Part shown: positions 774 through 34,826 of the stretch, piece by piece
Layout: each line of letters begins with the position of its first letter
How positions within the stretch are numbered: the first letter of the stretch is position 1
Notes under the pieces: generated by a model
Databases searched by the model: none
The model's input: only the letters and a program-made list of their open reading frames with translations
Told to the model about the DNA's origin: nothing
Program-made: the position numbers and the translations under genes
Virus record (IMG/VR): IMGVR_UViG_2877251553_000002
Length of the DNA stretch: 34,826 bases
Source: a virus
Lineage: Duplodnaviria > Heunggongvirae > Uroviricota > Caudoviricetes
Direction: 5' to 3' (one strand)

Positions 774-2311
774 ATGAGCAGCTCACTTCCTGACGATATC
801 AATGCACTGAAACGTCTCCTTGCCGAACAGGAGGCGCTGAACCGTGCCCTGCTGGAAAAGCTGAACGAGCGTGAACGCGAAATAGACCATCTGCAGGCAC
901 AGCTGGATAAGCTGCGCCGGATGAACTTCGGCAGCCGCTCCGAAAAAGTCTCCCGTCGTATCGCACAGATGGAAGCTGACCTGAAGGCACTTCAGAAAGA
1001 AAGTGATACCCTTACCGGTCGGGTTGACGACCCGGCCGTGCAGCGCCCGCTGCGTCAAACCCGCACCCGCAAACCGTTCCCGAATCACTCCCCCGCGATG
1101 AAAAACGGCTGCTGCCGGCAGCGTCATGCTGCCCGGAATGTGGAGGCTCACTGAGCTATCCGGGTGAGGATGCCGCCGAACAGCTGGAGTTGATGCGCAG
1201 CGTCTTCCGGGTTATCCGGACTGTACGTGAAAAGCATGCCTGTACTCAGTGCGATGCCATCGTGCAGGCCCCCGCGCCTTCACGGCCCATCGAGCGGGGT
1301 ATCGCAGGACCGGGGCTGCTGGCCCGCGTGCTGATCTCAAAGTATGCAGAGCACACCCCGCTGTACCGCCAGTATGAAATGTACGGACGCCAGGGCGTGG
1401 AGCTGAGTCGTTCACTGCTGTCGGGCTGGGTGGATGCATGCTGCCGGCTACTGTCACCGCTGGAAGAAGCGCTTCAGGACTATGTGCTGACTGACGGTAA
1501 GCTCCATGCTGATGACACGCCTGTCCCGGTGCTGTTGCCAGGCAATAAGAAAACGAAGACCGGGCGGTTATGGACCTACGTTCGTGACGACCGTAACGCC
1601 GGGTCAACGCTGGCGCCGGCGGTGTGGTTCGCTTACAGCCCGGACAGAAAAGGCATCCATCCGCAGACCCATCTTGCGGGGTTCAGTGGTGTACTGCAGG
1701 CGGATGCATACGCCGGGTTCAACGAGCTGTACCGGGATGGCCGGATAACGGAAGCCGCCTGTTGGGCTCACGCCCGCCGTAAAATCCACGATGTGCACGT
1801 TCGCACCCCGTCAGCCCTGACGGAGGAAGCGCTGAAACGGATCGGCGAACTGTACGCCATCGAGGCAGAGATAAGGGGAATGACGGCGGAGCAGCGCCTT
1901 GCCGAACGTCAGTTGAAAACGAAACCGCTGCTGAAATCCCTGGAAAGCTGGCTGCGTGAAAAGATGAAAACCCTGTCGCGACACTCAGAACTGGCGAAAG
2001 CGTTCGCATACGCCCTGAACCAGTGGCCGGCGCTGACGTACTATGCAGATGATGGCTGGGCTGAGGCGGACAATAACATCGCTGAAAATGCGTTGCGGAT
2101 GGTCAGTCTGGGCCGCAAAAACTACCTGTTCTTCGGTTCGGATCATGGAGGAGAGCGGGGAGCGCTGCTGTACAGCCTGATCGGGACGTGCAAACTGAAC
2201 GGAGTGGAGCCAGAAAGCTACCTCCGCTATGTCCTTGACGTCATAGCCGACTGGCCGATAAACCGGGTCGGCGAACTGCTCCCCTGGCGCGTAGCACTGC
2301 CGACTGAATAA
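774..2311 (+). pseudogene. IS66-family transposase TnpC (orf3), frameshifted
   Basis: ORFs 774-1154 and 1190-2311 together match the intact 512-aa TnpC of copy 3; C-tract at 1079-1081 has 3 C versus 4 C in copy 3. Confidence 0.8.
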
Positions 2312-4123: not shown

Positions 4124-4475
4124 AGTTTTTCTCGCGATAAATTAAATCAGGAAGAAATTTCCGGAGAGGCGGGCCATTCAATGGCGTTGTATGAGGTTTT
4201 ATCAGTGATGACACTGAAATCCATCGCCTGCAGCGATTTCGCGTAAATGCGGTACGCTTTCAGTTTTTCCCGGTCTTCGTCGCTGATTAGCCCCAGCAGC
4301 AGGTCTTCTTCCCATTCCCCTGTCCGGGCACTGACCTGAGCCAGAAGGGCATCACGCTCATCTTCCGCTTTGAGTCTGTAGTCAAAGACAAATTCATCAT
4401 TGCGGTAAAACCAGTAACCCGGCGCGGTAATGCGGCGGTTGGCGGTAATATCAGGAACTTGGTAATGACTCCAAC

Positions 4476-4979
4476 TTACTGATAGTGTTTTATGTTCAGA
4501 TAATGCCCGATGACCTTGTCATGCAGCTCCACCGATTTTGAGAACGACAGTGACTTCCGTCCCAGCCTTGCCAGATGTTGTCTCAGATTCAGATTATGTC
4601 GCTCAATGCGCTGAGTGTAACGCTTGCTGATAACGTGCAGCTTTCCCTTCAGGCGTGATTCATACAGCGGCCAGCCATCCGTCATCCATACCACGACCTC
4701 AAAGGCCGACAGCAGGCTCAGAAGACGCTCCAGTGTGGCCAGAGTGCGTTCACCGAAGACGTGCGCCACAACCGTCCTCCGTATCCTGTCATACGCGTAA
4801 AACAGCCAGCGCTGACGTGATTTAGCACCGACGTAGCCCCACTGTTCGTCCATTTCAGCGCAGACAATCACATCACTGCCCGGTTGTATGCGCGAGGTTA
4901 CCGACTGCGGCCTGAGTTTTTTAAGTGACGTAAAACCGTGTTGAGGCCAACGCCCATAATGCGTGCACTGGCGCGACAT
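4476..4979 (-). CDS. insB: IS1 InsB
   Basis: 167-aa [19 protein letters not shown]... characteristic of IS1. Confidence 0.85.
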
Positions 4980-5173
4980 CCGACGCCATTCATGGCCATA
5001 TCAATGATTTTCTGGTGCGTACCGGGCTGAGAGGCGGTGTAAGTGAACTGTAGTTGCCATGTTTTACGGCAATGAGAGCAGAGATAGCGCTGATGTCCGG
5101 CAGTGCTTTTGCCGTTACGCACCACGCCTTCAGTAGCGGAGCAGGAAGGACATCTGATGGAAATGGAAGCCAC
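4898..5173 (-). CDS. insA: IS1 InsA
   Basis: 91-aa [26 protein letters not shown]... characteristic of IS1. Confidence 0.85.
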
Positions 5174-5471
5174 GCAAGCACCTTAAAATCACCATCATAC
5201 ACTAAATCAGTAAGTTGGCAGCATTACCCAGGAACTTCAATAACACTGGCGTTACGGGGTTCAATGCCTGTCACATCCTTACCGACCCACACCACGCGAC
5301 CGTCTCCGGTGTAAGTTATTTTAATTGTGTCGCTGGCGAAATTCTTCAGCTCTTCATACCAGTTTTTTCCGTCTTCCGAAAAAAGCCAGGTGACATCATA
5401 TTGTTTTGTCAGCTGATATTGTTCCACGGTTTTCGGATTGCCCGCAGTAATATTTTTTAAATGCAACATTG

Positions 5472-6856
5472 TTAAACACTCGCCACGTTATACCAGGTGC
5501 CATTAATCAGTTTCTGAAGCGGGCGGTAATACACGCCGTTGACGTTATCCGCTGAGTCACGGCCGGTATCCGATATCGCTATCCCTGACAGCCCGTGTCC
5601 CGAAGGTGCGCGAAATCTCCACGAAACGGTGTTACTGCCGGGGCTGTAATACATTTCATGGCCATACCGTACATCCTGTACCCCCTCTGTTCGATATTTA
5701 TAGCGGGCATCGAAGTTTCCGTAATTTAACGGAATTACCTGTCCGTTTACGGCGAACGTGATGCTGTTATCTGTATTCCTCTGGCTGAAAAAATGCCAGC
5801 CTGAATCATCGCCAAGCTCTGCAACAACAGACCTGGATGGATTACCCCACAAATAAAACGCTGCATTTTTCGTGGAGTTGTTGGCGCTGGATAACGTGAA
5901 TTTTCTGGCAGTTCCGGCCTGAATATTCTTAAAAGCAATAGCCACTCCATTCTGAAAGCGGAATACACGCTGACTATTAGCATAAACATCCAGAATACCG
6001 TCTCCATTCTGTTTAAATCCGGTGTCATTATCACCAAGAACAATTGAATTCCCCCCAGGGCGTTCTGAACGCCGATACCCAGCGCACCATTGACCTGCGA
6101 ACCACCGCCAACAGACACTTTATGCGACATGGATATTTCACCCGTCCGCAAATTAATGGTGAACGGGCGCAGGGGACCAATATCGCCATTTTCCCCCTGA
6201 CCTTCACTGGTGGGAATAAGGTGCAGGCACTCTTCCGAACGACGAAAAATCAGGCCAAAAGCTTCGTTGAAAATCCTCAGCGCATTAACACCACGGATTT
6301 TCAGCTCTCCGGTTATTTTATCGCCTTCCCGATGAACATAGCGTTGATCTGACTGCTCTTTACTGTAAACCTGAAGATTATCCCGTGCCGTCCCTTTATT
6401 CTGAAGGTCTGACAGATTGTTCTTCTGCCGCAGGAATATCCTTTTCGGATCCTCAAGAAGATTTACCCAGCCCGCACTGTCGGAGCCTTCAGGATCGGTC
6501 AGGTTATCGTCTGTGGTATTCAGCCAGACCGCTGTTGTTGCGACTCCGGCGAGAATGGCTCCTTTTGCATATCCACCAATGGCCCCCGCAAAACCGGCAT
6601 TATACGTGTACAAACCGCCAGCTTGGGCGAACCGTATTGCTGCGGTAATATCGTACATCAGACCGTTAAAATCCTTGCCGTGTGGCGGTATACCTCCCGC
6701 TGAGACCGCTGTCATGGTCACCGGAGGAAAACCTGAATCATACGCAGCATTACCGCTCTCTCTGGTCTGCTGTGTCGCCTTGTCCGGGATACGGTTTTTA
6801 TCTCCGGTACTCGCAAAGGGGACCGCCAGCTGGCGGGGTTTATCACTGGCCTTCAT
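5472..6856 (-). pseudogene. tail fibre protein with P2 gpH-like C-terminal domain, frameshifted at a C6/G6 tract
   Basis: ORFs 5747-6856 and 5472-5945 overlap in different frames; C-terminal ORF ([11 protein letters not shown]...[11 protein letters not shown]...[11 protein letters not shown]) resembles the P2 gpH C-terminus; frames rejoin if the tract at 6058-6063 had one more base. Confidence 0.7.
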
Positions 6857-7259
6857 TACGGGACTCCTTTAAAACTACTGAAACATAAACACCCGGCGGG
6901 GACGGCAGTGCACCCGACGACTGGATAATCGCCAGTTCTGCCAACGAGAGCGCGGACTCAAAGATGTAACTCATCCTCAGCCCACCATTATTCAGAACAT
7001 AAGCCCGCCGTTTTTTTCCGAACATAAATCTCAGCATCCGGTTAATATCCGGAACGGAACAGTCAGTAATGTTCGACATGGCTTTCATCAGTATCAGCCG
7101 CCGGTATACAGCATCAGACAGGTCAACAGTCCGGGTATCCGATTTTCCGTTGTAAAACGGTGCCTGATTAGACTGGCCCCCTGAATCTCCAGACAACCAG
7201 TATCACTTAAATAAGTGATAGTCTTAATACTAGTTTTTAGACTAGTCATTGGAGTACAG

Positions 7260-7625
7260 ATGATTGATGTCTTAGGGCCGGAGAAACGCAGACGGCGTAC
7301 CACACAGGAAAAGATCGCAATTGTTCAGCAGAGCTTTGAACCGGGGATGACGGTCTCCCTAGTTGCCCGGCAACATGGTGTAGCAGCCAGCCAGTTATTT
7401 CTCTGGCGTAAGCAATACCAGGAAGGAAGTCTTACTGCTGTGGCCGCCGGAGAACAGGTTGTTCCTGCCTCTGAACTTGCTGCCGCCATGAAGCAGATTA
7501 AAGAACTCCAGCGCCTGCTCGGCAAGAAAACGATGGAAAATGAACTCCTCAAAGAAGCCGTTGAATATGGACGGGCAAAAAAGTGGATAGCGCACGCGCC
7601 CTTATTGCCCGGGGATGGGGAGTAA
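7260..7625 (+). CDS. insC: IS2 InsC (OrfA)
   Basis: [32 protein letters not shown]... characteristic of IS2. Confidence 0.85.
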
Positions 7626-8488
7626 GCTTAGTCAGCCGTTGTCTCCGGATGTCGCGTGCGCAGTTGCACGTCATTCTCAGACGAACCGATGACTGGATGG
7701 ATGGCCGCCGCAGTCGTCACACTGATGATACGGATGTGCTTCTCCGTATACACCATGTTATCGGAGAGCTGCCCACGTATGGTTATCGTCGGGTATGGGC
7801 GCTGCTTCGCAGACAGGCAGAACTTGATGGTATGCCTGCGATCAATGCCAAACGTGTTTACCGGATCATGCGCCAGAATGCGCTGTTGCTTGAGCGAAAA
7901 CCTGCTGTACCGCCATCGAAACGGGCACATACAGGCAGAGTGGCCGTGAAAGAAAGCAATCAGCGATGGTGCTCTGACGGGTTCGAGTTCTGCTGTGATA
8001 ACGGAGAGAGACTGCGTGTCACGTTCGCGCTGGACTGCTGTGATCGTGAGGCACTGCACTGGGCGGTGACTACCGGCGGCTTCAACAGTGAAACAGTACA
8101 GGACGTCATGCTGGGAGCGGTGGAACGCCGCTTCGGCAACGATCTTCCGTCGTCTCCAGTGGAGTGGCTGACGGATAATGGTTCATGCTACCGGGCTAAT
8201 GAAACACGCCAGTTCGCCCGGATGTTGGGACTTGAACCGAAGAACACGGCGGTGCGGAGTCCGGAGAGTAACGGAATAGCAGAGAGCTTCGTGAAAACGA
8301 TAAAGCGTGACTACATCAGTATCATGCCCAAACCAGACGGGTTAACGGCAGCAAAGAACCTTGCAGAGGCGTTCGAGCATTATAACGAATGGCATCCGCA
8401 TAGTGCGCTGGGTTATCGCTCGCCACGGGAATATCTGCGGCAGCGGGCTTGTAATGGGTTAAGTGATAACAGATGTCTGGAAATATAG
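7583..8488 (+). CDS. insD: IS2 InsD (OrfB transposase)
   Basis: 301-aa [33 protein letters not shown]... characteristic of IS2. Confidence 0.85.
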
Positions 8489-8784
8489 GGGCAAATCCAC
8501 TGATTAAACGGACAGGGATCATCCATTACCGGGGTGTCCATCCTGGACTCGCTGAAGCCCAGGTAATTAAAATCGTCCTTTACCGTCAGCCGGCGACTGA
8601 CACCCACAATCTTTCCCCAGACATCAAGACCATACTTTTCTGCGGTATCGATGTTCCAGATAAGACCATAAAAATCACTGATAAAACTGTCGGGGGAAAG
8701 CGCTGCGTTAAAGCTGTTAATGAGGGCATTGAGTCGGGGCTGGCAGCATACTGCGCAAGCACAGTGGCAGCCACATTCTGCACG

Positions 8785-10375: not shown

Positions 10376-11063
10376 GTTTTCTCCTGTTTACCGGGATCCC
10401 TGCGTGGTTGAGCCGCCGGACTCAACGCCGCCGTGAACGTGGTTTCCAAAATCAATACCCCGATGTTCGAACCGCCGGAAAGCCTGGACTGCCCGGTAAC
10501 GTCAAGCCCCTTACTGACGGCGGTATCGCCGTTCAGCGCAATTTGTGGTGAGTTAACGGTGAAGCTTTTCGGCGCATTAATCACCCCCTCAGGCGCGGAT
10601 ATCTCCACTTTCCAGGGAGATACAATCCGTATCTGGTTGTCATCAAATACCACAAACTGGACGGGATCACCGTTGAGCACGCCACCCAGCCAGATGGCAT
10701 CAGCATAATTATGGGTACGCTTTGATCCCGGCATCGCAGCCTGACGCGTGGCTTTTACCGCACTGATATCCCGATCGCAGATGGCAAGAAAACCGATATC
10801 CCCCACATGTGGCGGGATAATCACCGCATTACCGCCCCCTGTAGTCGCCATACGGGAATGTTATAAATCACCTCATGTTCAACCGGGGAACCGTCTGCTG
10901 CAACGCCCATTACCATCGGTCGGGCCTCAATAAATCCCTCTTCCACGGCTACCACCCGTCCCAGAGTGATAAACGCATGACGTCCGAGAAACTGCCGCAG
11001 CATAAAGTCCTGTGCATTGATTTCGCTGTTCACGTCTGTCGGGTTACTGAGTGGTTGTGCCAT
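10279..11063 (-). pseudogene. baseplate assembly protein V-like (spike), frameshifted
   Basis: ORFs 10821-11063 and 10279-10851 overlap in different frames; position and size fit gpV/Mu gp45-type proteins. Confidence 0.45.
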
Positions 11064-12922: not shown

Positions 12923-14938
12923 CCTGTTACCCCGCTGGAATAAACCGACACAAGCGCCGAATTCGTGATACGCCGACGTGCGTCATCGGTAATACCCTTC
13001 ACATTGTCCGACGTTGTGGTGACATTCAGTGTCCCGATATGCGTGGTTTCCGTTACGGTGGACTGCGATACAGGCGCAGGATGGAGCGACCGTATGGCCA
13101 TTGCCGCACCCGGATAAGGCAGGTTCGCCAGCACCCGCGGAATATAGTTGCGGGTCTCCTCCGGAGCAGCAGCCAGTCCCTTACGCTGAACATTTCCCTC
13201 TCCACAGTTATATGCCGCCAGAGCCTTAGCCAGATCGCCATGAAAAAAACGTATCAGGCCACCAAGTTTTCTCGCGGCGGCATCAGCGGCTTTTTCGGGA
13301 TCAAAGGCATCGTTCCCCCTCAGACCAAATTCACTGGCCGTCTTCGGCATGAACTGAAACAGTCCCATCGCACCAGCAGGTGAGACGGCAAACTGATTAC
13401 CACGGGATTCGGTGATCGCAACGCTGCGCAGCAGTCCGGGCGGCAGGTTATATTTTTCCTCCAGTTGAGACAGTTTCGGTTGCAGCCAGCCTAACAGGGC
13501 TTCCCCGGTCTTCGTCGGTCGCTGGCGGTTTTGCATGGCATTACCGAGTTTTTCCTGCGTCGCACGCATACCCTGTAGCCAGGATTCACCGAAGGCTGCT
13601 TCCCTCCCGGTTGCCTGAGAAGCCTGAGTATCCAGCATGCCCTGCTGCCATACTGTGGGTGATTGTGCCCGGGTGATGTTGCCAGGCTTTTCTCCGGCAT
13701 CCAGTTTTGTCTGATACGTCTCCATCTCTTTCTTATTGAAAAAGAAAGTCCCGTCTGAAGCCCAGAAAAAACCATGTGAATCCAGCCAGTCCTTATTTTC
13801 CCTGCCAACAATGGATGTCAGTAATCCGTCAACAACCGGGTAAAGCGCCGTTATCGCAAAAAGAAGGCCTCCGGGGCCACTGAGGGCTTTTGTCAGCCCC
13901 CGCACCCATGACGCCACTTTCAGCCCGATCAGCGTAATAATGACATTCTGCCAGCCCCCAGTTCTCCGGCAGCCTTATTCGCTAGGGAGGCCACTGACTC
14001 AACGTCATTCAGAAATGTGGTGATAAACCTGTTCACTTCCTCCGGATGTTGCTGCATCCAGTCACCGAGTGTCTCCAGCCAGTGGCTGAGCTTCAGCGCG
14101 TACGGCATCAACGCGGTGCTAATCGTCATCCCGATGCCGGACCAGGTCTGATCGAGCTCAACAAGCTCTTTTCGTAGCTTACGGGCCAGCGCTGTACGCC
14201 CCGGCGTAACCTGCGAACGGGAAGTAAATTCGTCCACATCTTTCAGCGCATGACCGGAGCCAAGAAACTGCTGTCCGGCATAACTGAAGCCCAGCGCGTT
14301 GCCGTAGGCAGTTTGTTCGGACTTTGTCAGTCGCGGAAAAATAACCGCCAGCTTGCGCATGATGGCTTCAGTGCTGTCAGTATTTAAATCAACACTAATG
14401 CCCGCCCTGGCTGCAACCTGAAACAAATCCTGTAACACAGGATCAAAGGACCTTCCGGCTCTGAAGGCCGCTTTTGCATTTGCAAGCCGGGAAAATGCCC
14501 CAGACATTTCCCCTTCATCAACATTATTTGCCCGCGCAGCCCGTAACCATCCGTCCAGATTTCTGGCCTTCATGCCAAAAGCATCGGATTCCACGGACAG
14601 ACGGTTCAGATCACGGGCAAAACCTGTTACCAGGTTCTTCAGCCCCCCAGCGTCAGACTGACACCCGCAAGAGCCAGAATCTCGCTACGGATTCCTGAAA
14701 AAAAACGGGACGCCCGTTTCCCGGCATCTTCCATTCGACGGGCCGTTTTATCAGCATCTTTTCCGGTTTTTTCCAGTGATTCACTGGTTTTCTTCTGTCC
14801 CTGACTGAATGTGTCAGCGACACCTTCCATCACCGTCGTGAGCCGGTTAAGGGCAGCATGTACTGCCTGTTCCCCGGCAGTAAAGTCCCTGTCATCAATC
14901 CCGAGGGACAGAACAAGCTCATCAAGTACCTGCGCCAT
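12919..14938 (-). pseudogene. tail tape measure protein with C-terminal lytic transglycosylase (SLT) domain, split over three frames
   Basis: ORFs 14639-14938, 13929-14594 and 12919-13917 are consecutive in different frames; the last has an SLT-like signature (ESRGNQFAVSPAGAMGLFQFMP...AAYNCGEGNV). Confidence 0.55.
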
Positions 14939-15290
14939 TTCTGTTCTCCTGTATCACCTGTTCGTTATGGGCATCCACATGAATTATTTCCAGCAGATCC
15001 CATAAGTCCTGCACACCAAGGACAGAATCCAGTTCAGCTTTTGAAGCCTTACCGGAGGAGATAACGGTCGCAATGGTACGGGGAACATTAACGTAATCCA
15101 CCACCCCGAACGGTCTGTCGGGGTCGAGATAACGCGGGGGATATCTAGCTGACGACGGTAGCGAAAAAATCCACATGCAGCTTAAAGACCTCCGCACGCA
15201 GATTAAGACGGGTAATGATTTCTTCAATATCCTCTTCAACAAGCGGTCTCCGGATGCTGCGTTTTTTCGGATCGGGAACAAACTGCACAC
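14922..15290 (-). CDS. ORF overlapping the 3' end of the tail chaperone gene in the +1 frame (possible frameshift extension)
   Basis: Protein-like acidic sequence (...PFGVVDYVNVPRTIATVISSGKASKAELDSVLGVQDLWDLLEIIH...) spanning the chaperone-tape measure gap; no convincing own start signal. Confidence 0.3.
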   Translation of the reverse strand: MCSLFPIRKNAASGDRLLKRILKKSLPVLICVRRSLSCMWIFSLPSSARYPPRYLDPDRPFGVVDYVNVPRTIATVISSGKASKAELDSVLGVQDLWDLLEIIHVDAHNEQVIQENRNGAGT

Positions 15291-16585: not shown

Positions 16586-17949
16586 GTTGGAGTCATTACC
16601 GACAGTTTACCGTCAATACCGCGGGCAGTTTCCGCCAGTACCAGTGGATCGGTGCCATAAACGTTATCTGTTGCAAATCCCTGAAGTCGTACGCCGGAGG
16701 GATACAGATTATTCACTGTCAGCGTGATAATGGCATCCGCCGCAGTGATGGTGTTGTTGTTACCCGACATTTACTGGACCTCCGTGGATGCAATAACAAG
16801 TTTCTGGATACTACCGCCGTCACAGTACCAGAGCGTACAGGACGGACTGCTACGGGTTGCCCGCAAAGAGGGAAGCATATCGCCGATATACAGGTAATAG
16901 CCGGTGGCAAACAACGTTGAAGAAACATCTGCCTCCACAACATTGTTAATCTGTTTCTTCTGCGCCTCCGTCAGTGTCACCCCTTCACGGATCCCTCCCC
17001 AGCGTTTGTACTGCTGGATAACGTCACTCATTGACGCTGCAACCAGCGCCCGCCCTTCATTGTTGTAGGGGACCGTCTGGTTTGACTTGAATAATGCGAT
17101 CACCGCCCCTGCAAACTGGCATTCAGCCAGATTTGCCCGCAGAAACTGTCCAGCCATTTAAAATCACCGGTAATAGTGCCATCCGCCCAGTAATCTTCCA
17201 CCACACTGTTTTCCGCATATTTTCCGTAGAAATTGTAACCTGCGGCGATCAGCGCATCATAATCGCTGCCACTGGTAACATCAGCGGCCAGCCCCTCATA
17301 CTCGCGGAACTTGAATGATACACGCCCCTCTGGTCGGATAAAATCAAGGCACGCTGCATACCCCAGTACCGCTGCAGCCCGGTTACCATCAGTCGCGAAA
17401 ACAGGTACAACAGAGCTGTAGTTATTGACAGCAATTATCTGGTAAGCGATGTGTTCAGTACTGCCTTTTACTCTGGCGTTGCCGCTGGTTGTCCATGCCA
17501 CATAAAAGTAACGCTTGCCCTGCCCGTTTGCCCATGCAGAAAACGCCAGGTGTTGCTCGTCAGTGACCTCAGATACCGTGGAAAAACCCGCCCATTGCTG
17601 GGAAGCGGCCTTAATGGCTGCCATTGTGTCAGGGACATCAGATACAGGCGCGCCCCGGGATATCACCGCACCGGTGTTACTGGTCATCTTCAGGAGTTCT
17701 GCTGCCGATCCACTGCCGAACGTTATCGTGGTACTCCCGGGTTTCGCCCCGGCGACAGTAATGACAAAAGCATTCTGTGTGGTATCGAATACCACTGTAG
17801 CCACTGCTGCGGTCAGCGCTGTCTGTAGTGCCGTTGCAGCAGCGGCGAAGCTGGCGACACCGTTAAAATTCACTTCAATGCTGACGCTTTTCCCGTTAAT
17901 ACTCAGCATCAGCGTAAGCGTGCAGCAAGAACCGTATTGACGGGATGTG

Positions 17950-19487
17950 TTATTCAGTCGGCAGTGCTACGCGCCAGGGGAGCAGTTCGCCGACCCGGTT
18001 TATCGGCCAGTCGGCTATGACGTCAAGTACATAGCGGAGGTAGCTTTCTGGCTCCACTCCGTTCAGTTTGCACGTCCCGATCAGGCTGTACAGCAGCGCT
18101 CCCCGCTCTCCTCCATGATCCGAACCGAAGAACAGGTAGTTTTTGCGGCCCAGACTGACCATCCGCAACGCATTTTCAGCGATGTTATTGTCCGCCTCAG
18201 CCCAGCCATCATCTGCATAGTACGTCAGCGCCGGCCACTGGTTCAGGGCGTATGCGAACGCTTTCGCCAGTTCTGAGTGTCGCGACAGGGTTTTCATCTT
18301 TTCACGCAGCCAGCTTTCCAGGGATTTCAGCAGCGGTTTCGTTTTCAACTGACGTTCGGCAAGGCGCTGCTCCGCCGTCATTCCCCTTATCTCTGCCTCG
18401 ATGGCGTACAGTTCGCCGATCCGTTTCAGCGCTTCCTCCGTCAGGGCTGACGGGGTGCGAACGTGCACATCGTGGATTTTACGGCGGGCGTGAGCCCAAC
18501 AGGCGGCTTCCGTTATCCGGCCATCCCGGTACAGCTCGTTGAACCCGGCGTATGCATCCGCCTGCAGTACACCACTGAACCCCGCAAGATGGGTCTGCGG
18601 ATGGATGCCTTTTCTGTCCGGGCTGTAAGCGAACCACACCGCCGGCGCCAGCGTTGACCCGGCGTTACGGTCGTCACGAACGTAGGTCCATAACCGCCCG
18701 GTCTTCGTTTTCTTATTGCCTGGCAACAGCACCGGGACAGGCGTGTCATCGCATGGAGCTTACCGTCAGTCAGCACATAGTCCTGAAGCGCTTCTTCCAG
18801 CGGTGACAGTAGCCGGCAGCATGCATCCACCCAGCCCGACAGCAGTGAACGACTCAGCTCCACGCCCTGGCGGCCGTACATTTCAGACTGGCGGTACAGC
18901 GGGGTGTGCTCTGCATACTTTGAGATCAGCACGCGGGCCAGCAGCCCCGGTCCTGCGATACCCCGCTCGATGGGCCGTGAAGGCGCGGGGGCCTGCACGA
19001 TGGCATTGCACTGAGTACAGGCATGCTTTTCACGTACAGTCCGGATAACCCGGAAGACGCTGCGCATCAACTCCAGCTGTTCGGCGGCATCCTCACCCGG
19101 ATAGCTCAGTGAGCCTCCACATTCCGGGCAGCATGACGCTGCCGGCAGCAGCCGTTTTTCATCGCGGGGGAGTGATTCGGGGAACGGTTTGCGGGTGCGG
19201 GTTTGACGCAGCGGGCGCTGCACGGCCGGGTCGTCAACCCGACCGGTAAGGGTATCACTTTCTTTCTGAAGTGCCTTCAGGTCAGCTTCCATCTGTGCGA
19301 TACGACGGGAGACTTTTTCGGAGCGGCTGCCGAAGTTCATCCGGCGCAGCTTATCCAGCTGTGCCTGCAGATGGTCTATTTCGCGTTCACGCTCGTTCAG
19401 CTTTTCCAGCAGGGCACGGTTCAGCGCCTCCTGTTCGGCAAGGAGACGTTTCAGTGCATTGATATCGTCAGGAAGTGAGCTGCTCAT
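17950..19487 (-). pseudogene. IS66-family transposase TnpC, frameshifted
   Basis: ORFs 18513-19487 and 17950-18732 match the intact copy-3 TnpC; 1-bp deletion near 18750 (GTCATCGCATGG versus GTCATCAGCATGG). Confidence 0.8.
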
Positions 19488-19535
19488 ACCGGGTATATTA
19501 CCAGGCTCATTCAGCGTCGACCAGGATAAAGAGGC

Positions 19536-19883
19536 TTACAACATAGTCAGGGACGTAAGCAGTCTTTTAGGCTGCCGCCAGTCGATACCTTCAAGGAGCA
19601 TCGCCAGCTGTGCCGGTGTGAGGAACACTTTGCCATCCCGGGCTGACGGCCAGGCGAAGCGGCCGCGCTCCAGCCGTTTGGTCAGCAGACACAGTCCATC
19701 GCCGGTAGACCAGAGGAGCTTTACCTGACTGCCATTACGCCCACGGAAGATAAAAACGTGACCTGACATCGGAGCGTCTTTCAGCGTCGTCTGCACCTTT
19801 GCCGCCAGGCCGTTGAAGCCATTTCTCATATCGGTGATACCGGCAACCAGCCAAATTTTGGTCCCGGAAGGTAACGGGATCAT
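19536..19883 (-). CDS. IS66-family TnpB (orf2)
   Basis: 115-aa ORF, one substitution relative to the other copies. Confidence 0.85.
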   Translation of the reverse strand: MIPLPSGTKIWLVAGITDMRNGFNGLAAKVQTTLKDAPMSGHVFIFRGRNGSQVKLLWSTGDGLCLLTKRLERGRFAWPSARDGKVFLTPAQLAMLLEGIDWRQPKRLLTSLTML

Positions 19884-20281
19884 CGCTTCAGTTCCTGTAT
19901 CAGCAGAGTCAGGAGCTTTTCGCTGACATTGCCATTGAAGCGGAGCGTCCCGTGCCGGAACGTTACCTCACAGCTGATACTGAGGGTTTCCGGATCCTCT
20001 GCGAGCGATTCTGGCTGTTCGGCAGCTGCATCGAGAGTCACAGGAAGTAGCTGGGGGCTCTCTGAAGAAGGTAATAGCAGCTTTCCCTCGCGCCATTGTT
20101 GTCGCCATTTGAACAACAGATTGGCGTTAATGCCATTTTCAAGAGCAAGTTTTGAGATGGATATCCCGGGTTCACAGGAGGCAGCAACGAGCTGCTGTTT
20201 AAATTCGGGAGGATAATTAGGGCAGCCTTTTCGCCTGCCGGGATTCACATTTTTCTGCATATCTGACACTTTGGTTCCCAC
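19880..20281 (-). CDS. IS66-family TnpA (orf1)
   Basis: 133-aa ORF MGTKVSDMQKNV...; true start may be the internal Met at 20260. Confidence 0.8.
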   Translation of the reverse strand: MGTKVSDMQKNVNPGRRKGCPNYPPEFKQQLVAASCEPGISISKLALENGINANLLFKWRQQWREGKLLLPSSESPQLLPVTLDAAAEQPESLAEDPETLSISCEVTFRHGTLRFNGNVSEKLLTLLIQELKR

Positions 20282-20681
20282 TACTTATTTGGTGGACACC
20301 ACTTTGTCTAATTCGTCAGATTCTGACCAGACGGTTCAGGCTGTACGCTTACGCATCAGCGTGCCGGAAAGTTTTTGTAGCTGTTCAACAGTCGCGCCCT
20401 TAAACGAACCGCTACGTAACCAGGCCGCCGATGGGGCAGGACTGAAACGGGAAAACAACAATTGCCCCGGCGTCCTGGTGGCATTTTTGAAGCCCTGGAA
20501 ATAAAGCTGAGCGCGTGCGTACTCATCGGATAATGCACCAAAATACGCGGCCACATCATCCGGAGAGGAAAACGGAACCACAGTGCCGACCGGAAGTAAC
20601 GGATTACTGGTCAACAGCAGGCCGTTAAGATCGACGGCATTACCCGCCACAGCCAGCACACCGGGATTTATCTGTACATCT

Positions 20682-21107
20682 TTACTGAGTGGAATTGGCA
20701 TTATCAGCCTCCGTTGTCCGGGTGATCACGTTGTCAAAAAACATCAGGGAAGTTGTGACCACAGGGTTAATCTGCATCTGAATATCAAGCGTCCAGCGCG
20801 GTTCATACTGTTGCTGACCGTTGGGGAATGTGGTGTTAAAGGGCTCTGAGCAATACAGCGGGGAAATCAGCCCACCGCCCTGCCGGAAAAGCCGTACGGA
20901 AAATTCAGACCGGAAAAGCGTTGCCAGCACCTGAGCGTTATCTGCCGCGTGAGGGCCGTAGAAATCAAGCTGGCAACGCCATTTTGTGGTACGGGTGATA
21001 TGCTGAGAGCCCTCACCAGCCTGCGCTGGCGCAGAATATGCCACTACCGCAGTGGATAATCCGGTAACATCAATGCCCGTCATGGTGATGAAATTCCCCT
21101 GAGGCAT
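20682..21107 (-). CDS. hypothetical phage structural protein upstream of sheath
   Basis: 141-aa ORF; start of sheath gene overlaps its 3' end. Confidence 0.35.
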   Translation of the reverse strand: MPQGNFITMTGIDVTGLSTAVVAYSAPAQAGEGSQHITRTTKWRCQLDFYGPHAADNAQVLATLFRSEFSVRLFRQGGGLISPLYCSEPFNTTFPNGQQQYEPRWTLDIQMQINPVVTTSLMFFDNVITRTTEADNANSTQ

Positions 21108-21213
21108 CGGGACCTGGTTCTGCTGCGTTCGTTCAATCCCGGCATCAGAAAAAAGCCCCGGTGATAATCACCGAGGGCCTGATAAAGAGCGCTTTCCGTA
21201 ACGGAGAGGGTCA

Positions 21214-21575
21214 CACCTGAAGGCATACAATAACCCTCGTCCAGTCAGGCCAGATTTCCAGTACCTCAATCACCAGCCACGTTTCATCGCCAATAACAAA
21301 TTTATCGCCTCCCTGTTGCCGGGCACGGTTAAGCCCGCACCAGTTACCATCGGTATACAATGTGGCGAAAACTCCCTGCTGGTTAAGATTATCAAGATGA
21401 CGTAAATCAGCCTGGGTGACAGCCTGCTTTTGCCCCTGACGGAAACCGGATCTTCATACTCAGGTACGCGGGAATAATCTGCCTGCTGTGTACTCCCGCG
21501 GGAACGATAAACCAGCGCGTCTGTAAAGGGATTTACCCGACGTACTGCGCCGGAAACAATACCGTGAAAGTTCAT
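21214..21575 (-). pseudogene. hypothetical phage structural protein, frameshifted
   Basis: ORF 21270-21575 shifts near the C4/G4 tract at 21433-21436 into a frame that stays open to a stop at 21211-21213. Confidence 0.35.
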
Positions 21576-21826: not shown

Positions 21827-22155
21827 CTTACGGAAGAACGGACGGGGGGAATGGTGACCGTGTGCTCAGGAATAACCACATCCTGAACAAAATTCCCTTT
21901 ACCGGCTTTGACAAAGCGGTGCCCGGTTTCTCCCGTTTTTTCGTTATAGCGAAAGTGGAGCGTCTGCTCACGGGCGGGTATGACCGCTCTTCCACCAAAC
22001 TCCTGAACTGCGGCAATATAAGCCACTGACGTACCGTCAGGGTAAGTTGCTCCCTCAAGAAAACCCACTTTGAGTTTTTTACCCAATGAAAGGTTCGCGG
22101 CAACCTGTTTCAGCTTCTGCCGGAACTGTTTGCCACCTGTGACTTTATTTACCAT
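21823..22155 (-). CDS. hypothetical phage head-tail/neck protein
   Basis: 110-aa ORF in a run of overlapping minus-strand ORFs. Confidence 0.4.
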
Positions 22156-22604
22156 CGACGCCCCCTCCCGTATCCCCGGTAATAATGCCCCGGATATCGC
22201 GAAGGTGCCCCCCCGGAATGATACTGCATTGAGCGGTATGGCGCTGTCGCCTGCCAGTAGTCAGCACCCCAGGGGGTCTGGAGATACCACCACGACGCAT
22301 CATTACTGCCGCTATTATCCACCGATACCGATACAGAACCTTCCGACGCACTGGTGATACGCCCCACCAGACCAGCCTGCCCGTCTCTCCCGTTTCCCAG
22401 CCCCCGCAATGCGCACAGATGCGCAACCAGCAGGAACAGAAGCTGTTCCCGCTCCTTCAGGTCGGTAACCGGACTGTCGTCCGTGTTATCCAGGTACAAC
22501 GCGGTCGCCCGGTTAAACACCGCCGTCAGTAGCTCCGGTGTCACCGTGGAAAACTCCGGGTACAGACTGACAAACATCCGACAGTCAAACGTCACCGTAC
22601 CCAT
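22149..22604 (-). CDS. hypothetical phage head-tail connector-type protein
   Basis: 151-aa ORF upstream of the neck/tail genes. Confidence 0.4.
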
Positions 22605-26224: not shown

Positions 26225-26352
26225 GGTGATGACTCCAACTTACTGATAGTGTTTTATGTTCAGATAATGCCCGATGACCTTGTCATGCAGCTCCACCGAT
26301 TTTGAGAACGACAGTGACTTCCGTCCCAGCCTTGCCAGATGTTGTCTCAGAG
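26225..26352 (-). mobile_element. IS1 terminal fragment (~128 bp)
   Basis: GGTGATGACTCCAACTTACTGATAGTGTTTTATGTTCAGATAATGCCCGATGAC... matches the IS1 end at 4461-4590, then is cut by the ISEc8-like terminus at 26353. Confidence 0.8.
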
Positions 26353-26388
26353 TAAGCGTGCAGCAAGAACCGTATTGACGGGGATGTG

Positions 26389-27927
26389 TTATTCAGTCGG
26401 CAGTGCTACGCGCCAGGGGAGCAGTTCGCCGACCCGGTTTATCGGCCAGTCGGCTATGACGTCAAGTACATAGCGGAGGTAGCTTTCTGGCTCCACTCCG
26501 TTCAGTTTGCACGTCCCGATCAGGCTGTACAGCAGCGCTCCCCGCTCTCCTCCATGATCCGAACCGAAGAACAGGTAGTTTTTGCGGCCCAGACTGACCA
26601 TCCGCAACGCATTTTCAGCGATGTTATTGTCCGCCTCAGCCCAGCCATCATCTGCATAGTACGTCAGCGCCGGCCACTGGTTCAGGGCGTATGCGAACGC
26701 TTTCGCCAGTTCTGAGTGTCGCGACAGGGTTTTCATCTTTTCACGCAGCCAGCTTTCCAGGGATTTCAGCAGCGGTTTCGTTTTCAACTGACGTTCGGCA
26801 AGGCGCTGCTCCGCCGTCATTCCCCTTATCTCTGCCTCGATGGCGTACAGTTCGCCGATCCGTTTCAGCGCTTCCTCCGTCAGGGCTGACGGGGTGCGAA
26901 CGTGCACATCGTGGATTTTACGGCGGGCGTGAGCCCAACAGGCGGCTTCCGTTATCCGGCCATCCCGGTACAGCTCGTTGAACCCGGCGTATGCATCCGC
27001 CTGCAGTACACCACTGAACCCCGCAAGATGGGTCTGCGGATGGATGCCTTTTCTGTCCGGGCTGTAAGCGAACCACACCGCCGGCGCCAGCGTTGACCCG
27101 GCGTTACGGTCGTCACGAACGTAGGTCCATAACCGCCCGGTCTTCGTTTTCTTATTGCCTGGCAACAGCACCGGGACAGGCGTGTCATCAGCATGGAGCT
27201 TACCGTCAGTCAGCACATAGTCCTGAAGCGCTTCTTCCAGCGGTGACAGTAGCCGGCAGCATGCATCCACCCAGCCCGACAGCAGTGAACGACTCAGCTC
27301 CACGCCCTGGCGGCCGTACATTTCAGACTGGCGGTACAGCGGGGTGTGCTCTGCATACTTTGAGATCAGCACGCGGGCCAGCAGCCCCGGTCCTGCGATA
27401 CCCCGCTCGATGGGCCGTGAAGGCGCGGGGGCCTGCACGATGGCATCGCACTGAGTACAGGCATGCTTTTCACGTACAGTCCGGATAACCCGGAAGACGC
27501 TGCGCATCAACTCCAGCTGTTCGGCGGCATCCTCACCCGGATAGCTCAGTGAGCCTCCACATTCCGGGCAGCATGACGCTGCCGGCAGCAGCCGTTTTTC
27601 ATCGCGGGGGAGTGATTCGGGGAACGGTTTGCGGGTGCGGGTTTGACGCAGCGGGCGCTGCACGGCCGGGTCGTCAACCCGACCGGTAAGGGTATCACTT
27701 TCTTTCTGAAGTGCCTTCAGGTCAGCTTCCATCTGTGCGATACGACGGGAGACTTTTTCGGAGCGGCTGCCGAAGTTCATCCGGCGCAGCTTATCCAGCT
27801 GTGCCTGCAGATGGTCTATTTCGCGTTCACGCTCGTTCAGCTTTTCCAGCAGGGCACGGTTCAGCGCCTCCTGTTCGGCAAGGAGACGTTTCAGTGCATT
27901 GATATCGTCAGGAAGTGAGCTGCTCAT
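26389..27927 (-). CDS. IS66-family transposase TnpC, intact (512 aa)
   Basis: Single uninterrupted ORF; the only intact TnpC among the three copies. Confidence 0.85.
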
Positions 27928-27975
27928 ACCGGGTATATTACCAGGCTCATTCAGCGTCGACCAGGATAAAGAGGC

Positions 27976-28323
27976 TTACAACATAGTCAGGGACGTAAGC
28001 AGTCTTTTAGGCTGCCGCCAGTCGATACCTTCAAGGAGCATCGCCAGCTGTGCCGGTGTGAGGAACACTTTGCCATCCCGGGCTGACGGCCAGGCGAAGC
28101 GGCCGCGCTCCAGCCGTTTGGTCAGCAGACACAGTCCATCGCCGGTAGACCAGAGGAGCTTTACCTGACTGCCATTACGCCCACGGAAGATAAAAACGTG
28201 ACCTGACATCGGATCGTCTTTCAGCGTCGTCTGCACCTTTGCCGCCAGGCCGTTGAAGCCATTTCTCATATCGGTGATACCGGCAACCAGCCAAATTTTG
28301 GTCCCGGAAGGTAACGGGATCAT
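27976..28323 (-). CDS. IS66-family TnpB (orf2)
   Basis: 115-aa ORF identical to copy 1. Confidence 0.85.
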   Translation of the reverse strand: MIPLPSGTKIWLVAGITDMRNGFNGLAAKVQTTLKDDPMSGHVFIFRGRNGSQVKLLWSTGDGLCLLTKRLERGRFAWPSARDGKVFLTPAQLAMLLEGIDWRQPKRLLTSLTML

Positions 28324-28721
28324 CGCTTCAGTTCCTGTATCAGCAGAGTCAGGAGCTTTTCGCTGACATTGCCATTGAAGCGGAGCGTCCCGTGCCGGAA
28401 CGTTACCTCACAGCTGATACTGAGGGTTTCCGGATCCTCTGCGAGCGATTCTGGCTGTTCGGCAGCTGCATCGAGAGTCACAGGAAGTAGCTGGGGGCTA
28501 TCTGAAGAAGGTAATAGCAGCTTTCCCTCGCGCCATTGTTGTCGCCATTTGAACAACAGATTGGCGTTAATGCCATTTTCAAGAGCAAGTTTTGAGATGG
28601 ATATCCCGGGTTCACAGGAGGCAGCAACGAGCTGCTGTTTAAATTCGGGAGGATAATTAGGGCAGCCTTTTCGCCTGCCGGGATTCACATTTTTCTGCAT
28701 ATCTGACACTTTGGTTCCCAC
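28320..28721 (-). CDS. IS66-family TnpA (orf1)
   Basis: 133-aa ORF; alternative start at 28700. Confidence 0.8.
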   Translation of the reverse strand: MGTKVSDMQKNVNPGRRKGCPNYPPEFKQQLVAASCEPGISISKLALENGINANLLFKWRQQWREGKLLLPSSDSPQLLPVTLDAAAEQPESLAEDPETLSISCEVTFRHGTLRFNGNVSEKLLTLLIQELKR

Positions 28722-28818
28722 TACTTATTTGGTGGACACCACTTTGTCTAATTCGTCAGATTCTGACCAGACGGTTCAGGCTGTACGCTTACGTTTTTAT
28801 AATCCGGCCATGACATTT

Positions 28819-33042: not shown

Positions 33043-34826
<1,784 letters not shown>

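Follow-up and report, generated by a model that had tools for sequence, protein, structure and literature searches.

The fibre locus and the surrounding prophage

The stretch of DNA analysed, referred to below as the window, is 34,826 nucleotides long and is a stretch of CP026825.1, to which it was 100% identical over 7110 nt. It carries a prophage with an E217/P27-type contractile-tail module. In this module a tail fibre gene on the minus strand, lying between a DUF2612 baseplate-wedge gene upstream and an assembly (chaperone) gene downstream, loses its reading frame at a run of six G, and both neighbours are cut by IS elements (Table 1). The assembly gene is intact in sister records, where it encodes a 181-aa PF02413 (Caudo_TAP) protein downstream of the fibre, so that the fibre gene has a gpG-like neighbour.

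The tube gene is interrupted by a second IS1 and the sheath gene by an IS66-family element, and lysis and head genes, ~9.4 kb in all, have been lost. The baseplate J gene is split into 150 and 251 aa by a 4-nt deletion at ~9623 (minus strand), which was common to all Shigella copies examined. Judged from its sequence, the prophage is a defective, IS-riddled remnant that would be dead whatever the frame of the fibre gene, and for this reason the fibre frame would have no biological consequence in this genome.

Two further observations concern the same prophage. Within the baseplate J gene, GTCA and AGTC are repeated two or three times at two separate places, and records differ there by the gain or loss of one unit; a difference of a repeat unit was also present between two of the Logan contigs with eight G that are described below (220-223 of one). 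In an ORF of 484 aa or more at 33372-34826 (plus strand), an IS3-family transposase core (rve, residues ~30-257) is followed by a phage-integrase catalytic domain (329-475). Presumably an IS has landed in the integrase gene of the prophage and reads on into it, or this is a further artefact of the frame.

The fibre ORF had been described in the earlier note as reading ...GVQNALGG and then running into an implausible hydrophobic tail, and this is what the ORF at 5747-6856 (minus strand) contains: 269 native residues followed by 100 out-of-frame residues. A one-base frameshift in a G/C homopolymer of this gene was likewise found as described, but the position given for it, 6058-6063, was 7 nt off; those letters are CCC/T just upstream of the run, not the homopolymer itself. 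Insertion of one G in the run gave a 461-aa ORF ending at 5472.

Table 1. Positions in the window of the fibre locus, the adjoining IS elements and the runs found to be one base short. Arrows give the length in the compared records and the length in the window.
Feature	Position	Strand	Remarks
Run 4 → 3, IS66-family copy other than that at 17942	1079..1081	.	Transposase thereby split
IS1, 768 bp, in assembly gene	4461..5228	-	9-bp target duplication CAGGAACTT at 4452-4460 and 5229-5237
Assembly (chaperone) gene, 5' fragment	5224..5469	-	81 codons, cut by IS1
Fibre gene, true 3' part, P2 gpH-like tip	5472..6050	-	Residues 270-461 and stop, after G restored
Out-of-frame stretch	5747..6050	-	100 codons after the run in ORF 5747-6856
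G6 run, break of fibre frame	6051..6056	-	C6 (CCCCCC) on plus strand
Fibre gene, native 5' part	6051..6856	-	Codons 1-269, ending ...NALGG
IS2, 1331 bp, in DUF2612 baseplate-wedge gene directly upstream of fibre gene	7169..8499	+	5-bp target duplication CTGAT
C5 → C4, 5' part of DUF2612 gene	8736..8739	-	
G5 → G4, spike gene	10458..10461	-	Second hit in this gene
G6 → G5, spike gene	10835..10839	-	225-aa gene
G6 → G5, tape-measure gene	13955..13959	-	Second hit in this gene
G7 → G6, tape-measure gene	14643..14648	-	SLT domain
C6 → C5, upstream of tape-measure gene	15136..15140	-	Between 134-aa and 60-aa genes
G5 → G4, 3' part of sheath gene	17106..17109	-	
Run 4 → 3, end of IS66-family copy	17942..17944	.	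Other window copy has 4
G5 → G4, tail-terminator gene	21156..21159	-	
G4, second site of the earlier note	21433..21436	-	G5 in four sisters, GGGTG in EIEC; breaks 121-aa gp28-like gene
C7 → C6 (coding strand), structural gene	21844..21849	-	194-aa gene

Make-up of the fibre protein

The repaired frame was colinear with a P2 gpH-type tip, as the earlier note had proposed. Residues 255-461 aligned with gpH 477-669 at 61% identity over 207 aa (E 3e-79), and the alignment reached the C-termini of both proteins. Outside residues 255-461 no significant gpH alignment was found, and hence no gpH-like N-terminal baseplate-attachment region; the likeness to gpH does not extend to the full length of the protein. 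The N-terminus matched fibres of the EIEC/P27 type.

At the DNA level, nucleotides 1-540 (about 99-99.5% identity) and ~930 to the end (~99%) of the fibre gene matched an intact 466-aa fibre in a prophage of the enteroinvasive E. coli (EIEC) RMDEC364, which adjoins ipaH. Nucleotides 540-815 were a phiP27/Rac-SA53-like cassette, and ~90 nt right after the run were 95% identical to P2 gene H. At 5950-6320 (minus strand) the fibre gene is accordingly a three-way mosaic, with ends of the EIEC-prophage type, a middle cassette resembling P27 and a P2 H stretch of 90 nt. By these alignments the gene is a mosaic tail fibre of P27 type and P2 gpH type, and because the P2 H homology begins directly after the G run, the run would sit at a module junction.

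Relatives encode the same Leu-Gly-Gly-Asn through an interrupted GGGYGGAAAC, so that the uninterrupted run is the derived state. In E. coli FDAARGOS_944 the run is an uninterrupted G7 and the gene is intact. Among the complete genomes of E. coli and in the phage collection, no record exceeded 96.5% identity across the whole fibre gene, and the matches there were relatives only.

Length of the G run in other records

The frameshifted 369-aa product was found by exact look-up on two contigs only, CP026815.1 and CP026825.1. The repaired 461-aa protein, by the same kind of look-up, was present verbatim on 41 contigs (63 index blocks) and was listed under the name 'phage tail protein [Shigella dysenteriae]'. 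Its carriers include short-contig drafts, a Logan run, an NCTC assembly, CP045784.1 and two records of the accession block that holds the six-base run.

The comparison of tract length in relatives that the earlier note had suggested was carried out, and 14 distinct, independent records had seven bases; these were drafts, complete genomes and one metagenome contig, the latter being the one contig returned by a single metagenome scan. The draft assemblies and the one Logan run with the intact protein all had G7. Six bases were found in three distinct records, CP026805.1, CP026815.1 and CP026825.1, all in one accession block, and the same lesion occurred in none of the independent assemblies of relatives outside that block, contrary to what would be seen for a fixed pseudogene. 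The IS layout differs among all three G6 records, and each layout was also seen with G7 in a sister record. When the G6 records were compared with the G7 sisters of the same layout, there were 0 substitutions over 5.5-6.4 kb, and homopolymer contractions were the sole differences.

A 157-aa C-terminal ORF on 76 contigs was considered as a sign of a widespread break and was rejected; these are short contigs that start inside the gene, where the gene caller took an internal GTG. Where the tract was present on contigs with this ORF, it was G7.

A run of eight G was found in four read-derived Logan contigs (ERR14995163, SRR16101226, ERR15561421 and SRR25476566, with the tract within 2113-2150, 2109-2146, 1128-1165 and 862-899, respectively). 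G8 gives a truncated 275-aa product, and this exact product was found in the Logan assemblies of four runs. Two haplotypes carry it: one contig has the S. dysenteriae-type haplotype, and the other three have a second one, in which the DUF2612 wedge gene is uninterrupted. Over 1.0-2.2 kb the G8 contigs showed no further differences at homopolymers. The presence of G8 in four read-derived contigs suggests that the run can vary in length in nature, and G8 may be a real +1 lineage variant. If the G8 runs are short-read data, the tract would indeed undergo natural changes of length, in line with G7 being a hot spot; the six-base reading would not be rescued by this.

One-base contractions in the window and its flanks

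A second shift of the same type had been placed by the earlier note at 21433-21436, and this position was exact. One G added there restored a 121-aa protein identical to that of the sister.

The window was compared with four sister assemblies that share its IS66-family and IS1 insertions position for position. Between 11 and 13 one-base deletions set it apart from them, and all of these except one lay in G/C runs; from CP026807.1, the closest sister, it differed by 11 one-base deletions and 1 substitution in 13.6 kb. An error profile by run length was obtained from 20.87 kb aligned to CP045784.1. Every G/C run of seven (3/3) or six (3/3) bases in this comparable stretch was one base short in the window, and a fraction of the shorter ones were: 5/29 at length five, 2/99 at length four and 0/376 at length three. 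No run in the 20.87 kb was lengthened, and no A/T run was credibly affected. Within 21 kb, 13 G/C runs of the record lacked one base, which breaks about 9 prophage genes; among the genes hit in the window, those for the 673-aa tape measure and the 225-aa spike, with others, are intact in the sisters.

An error at a Dcm site (CCWGG) was considered as the cause of the fibre contraction (the tract reads CCTGGGGGG) and was rejected, since other contracted runs have no such sites. An A7/A6 difference from CP045784.1 was not counted as a contraction; it falls in the A6C slippery site of IS1, where the canonical A6 is present in the window. In CP045784.1 (16745-17443, ~window 4923) it is the IS1 in the chaperone gene that has A7, not the canonical A6, at the programmed-frameshift site. 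This A7 would fuse InsA and InsB in frame, and it may be real or an error of CP045784.1.

Two sites in the window depart from the pattern. The C7 run at 22208-22214 has the same length as in the EIEC relative; since it was not shortened, the undercall would not be universal, unless the true length there is 8. At 18751 a one-base deletion outside any homopolymer splits the transposase of one of the IS66-family copies, which lie at ~17900-20350 and ~26347-28793. This deletion was common to the window and CP026807.1 and absent in the three other sisters, and because CP026807.1 shares it, it is probably a real mutation, not an undercall.

No housekeeping gene was available as a control inside the window, the right-hand end of which consists of the prophage early region and IS elements, and the 10-kb flanks of the source record beyond the window served as the chromosomal control. 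There zitB, which adjoins the prophage, is split into 174 and 139 aa, compared with 313 aa, by a change from G4 to G3, and nadA has G5 in place of G6; these lesions lie at 16982-21110 of the chromosomal flank of the source record. CP026825.1 and CP026815.1 each have a private subset of contracted G/C runs, in IS2 copies and chromosomal genes as well.

Prophage, IS elements and chromosome were thus all hit by G/C-biased homopolymer deletions that rose in frequency with run length, indels far outnumbered substitutions, and the variants were absent from the independent short-read-based assemblies compared. Shortening of long G/C runs in one direction only, with 1 substitution, and independently in sister strains, argues against a real mutational process.

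Origin of the six-base run

We put at about 90% the probability that the six-base run is a homopolymer consensus undercall in an unpolished long-read assembly, and that the strain itself has G7 and an intact 461-aa fibre ORF. A long-read (PacBio) assembly without short-read polishing, as we infer CP026825.1 to be, would drop one base at long G/C runs; a true G7 would then be reported as G6, giving an apparent frameshift in an otherwise intact fibre ORF. The earlier note had left three options open for the shift, and of these the homopolymer sequencing error is favoured by the 14 G7 records and the restriction of G6 to one block, fixed decay is not supported, and phase variation is unlikely for this locus, the prophage being defective. 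In all probability, the frameshift is an assembly artefact and not a real feature, and would have no biological importance.

The assignment of CP026825.1 to a set of unpolished PacBio genomes was drawn from its accession block and error profile, not read from the record. Two other records of its block, CP026832 and CP026840, appear in citations as members of the PacBio set of Kim et al. 2018. Yassine et al. [quoted passage not shown] The ARAMIS paper (PMC8574707) describes deletions that recur systematically in G and C homopolymers when bacteria, E. coli among them, are assembled from PacBio RS II data alone.

A real one-base deletion from G7 to G6, fixed in the strain by mutational decay at a slippage-prone run of a defective prophage, is improbable. 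It would suit a prophage under no selection, which has IS1, IS2 and IS66-family insertions and a deletion of head genes, and in which the one-base deletion at 18751, outside any homopolymer and shared with CP026807.1, is probably real. Homopolymers are natural indel hot spots, and the occurrence of G8 on two haplotypes agrees with this, three of the G8 runs being from different accession series, which looks like a fixed lineage variant. Decay would, however, require three independent identical events, in three sublineages of a single sequencing batch, since G6 is restricted to the three records of one block and G7 sisters with the same layouts show no substitutions. It would also leave aside that all six G/C runs of at least 6 in the compared 21 kb, and a run in zitB too, are short by one, with one substitution against the closest sister. 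Moreover, a run with a true length of 6 would be expected to read 5 in this assembly.

Slipped-strand phase variation, in which the G run at the junction of shaft and tip would switch the receptor-binding fibre on (G7) or off (G6 or G8), is less probable still. Lengths of 6, 7 and 8 are on record for this one tract, the tract lies exactly where the gpH-type tip homology starts, and the uninterrupted run is derived; poly-G tracts in receptor-binding genes of Campylobacter phages have been reported to be hypermutable. Against this, 7 G make a short run by the standard of enterobacterial contingency loci, all G6 instances are accounted for by an assembly artefact, and apart from the three G6 records and the four G8 contigs the run was G7 in 14/14 records. 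The prophage cannot make a tail or virion, so there would be no functional system here and nothing on which selection could act. True variability of the run would make it a rare example, among enterobacteria, of a phage fibre gene switched by a homopolymer, a reading that the present data do not support. It is equally hard to credit that the run is a true hypermutable switch (G6/G7/G8) turning the fibre on and off in P27/E217-type prophages of Shigella, EIEC and E. coli, which the defective Shigella copy merely preserves.

Under the undercall reading, apparent frameshifts in G/C runs of CP026825.1, and probably of its sister records too, should be distrusted unless they are confirmed by short reads. 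The genes under suspicion are those for the tape measure, spike, terminator, sheath and wedge, together with zitB and nadA. Pseudogene counts and inferences of 'genome decay' drawn from these records would be inflated.

Comparison with known systems

Unpolished PacBio (RS II) assemblies show the same errors as the window: they are single-base and deletion-only, they become more frequent with run length, and nearly all are in G/C runs. The likeness extends to their distribution, with prophage, IS elements and chromosome hit alike, a stochastic occurrence between near-identical assemblies, and absence from independent ones. No difference in kind was seen, for a record whose platform we infer.

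The fibre run resembles homopolymer contingency loci in being a G run within a coding sequence whose length sets the frame, and in having more than one length on record. It differs from them in that the run is short (7), the G6 state is very probably artefactual and the gene lies in a defective prophage.

As regards the protein, the repaired fibre tip is colinear with P2 gpH, and in sister records a Caudo_TAP chaperone gene follows the fibre gene, as in the gpH/gpG pair of P2. A conserved C-terminal module is common to P2 gpH and to the P27, Rac-type and T-even fibres, and the fibre tip described here belongs with it. The fibre differs from gpH in its length (461 aa vs 669 aa) and in its N-terminal 250 residues, which are unrelated to gpH; these match the fibre of the ipaH-associated prophage of EIEC/Shigella with its E217/P27-type baseplate, in addition to which the gene has a P27-like middle cassette.
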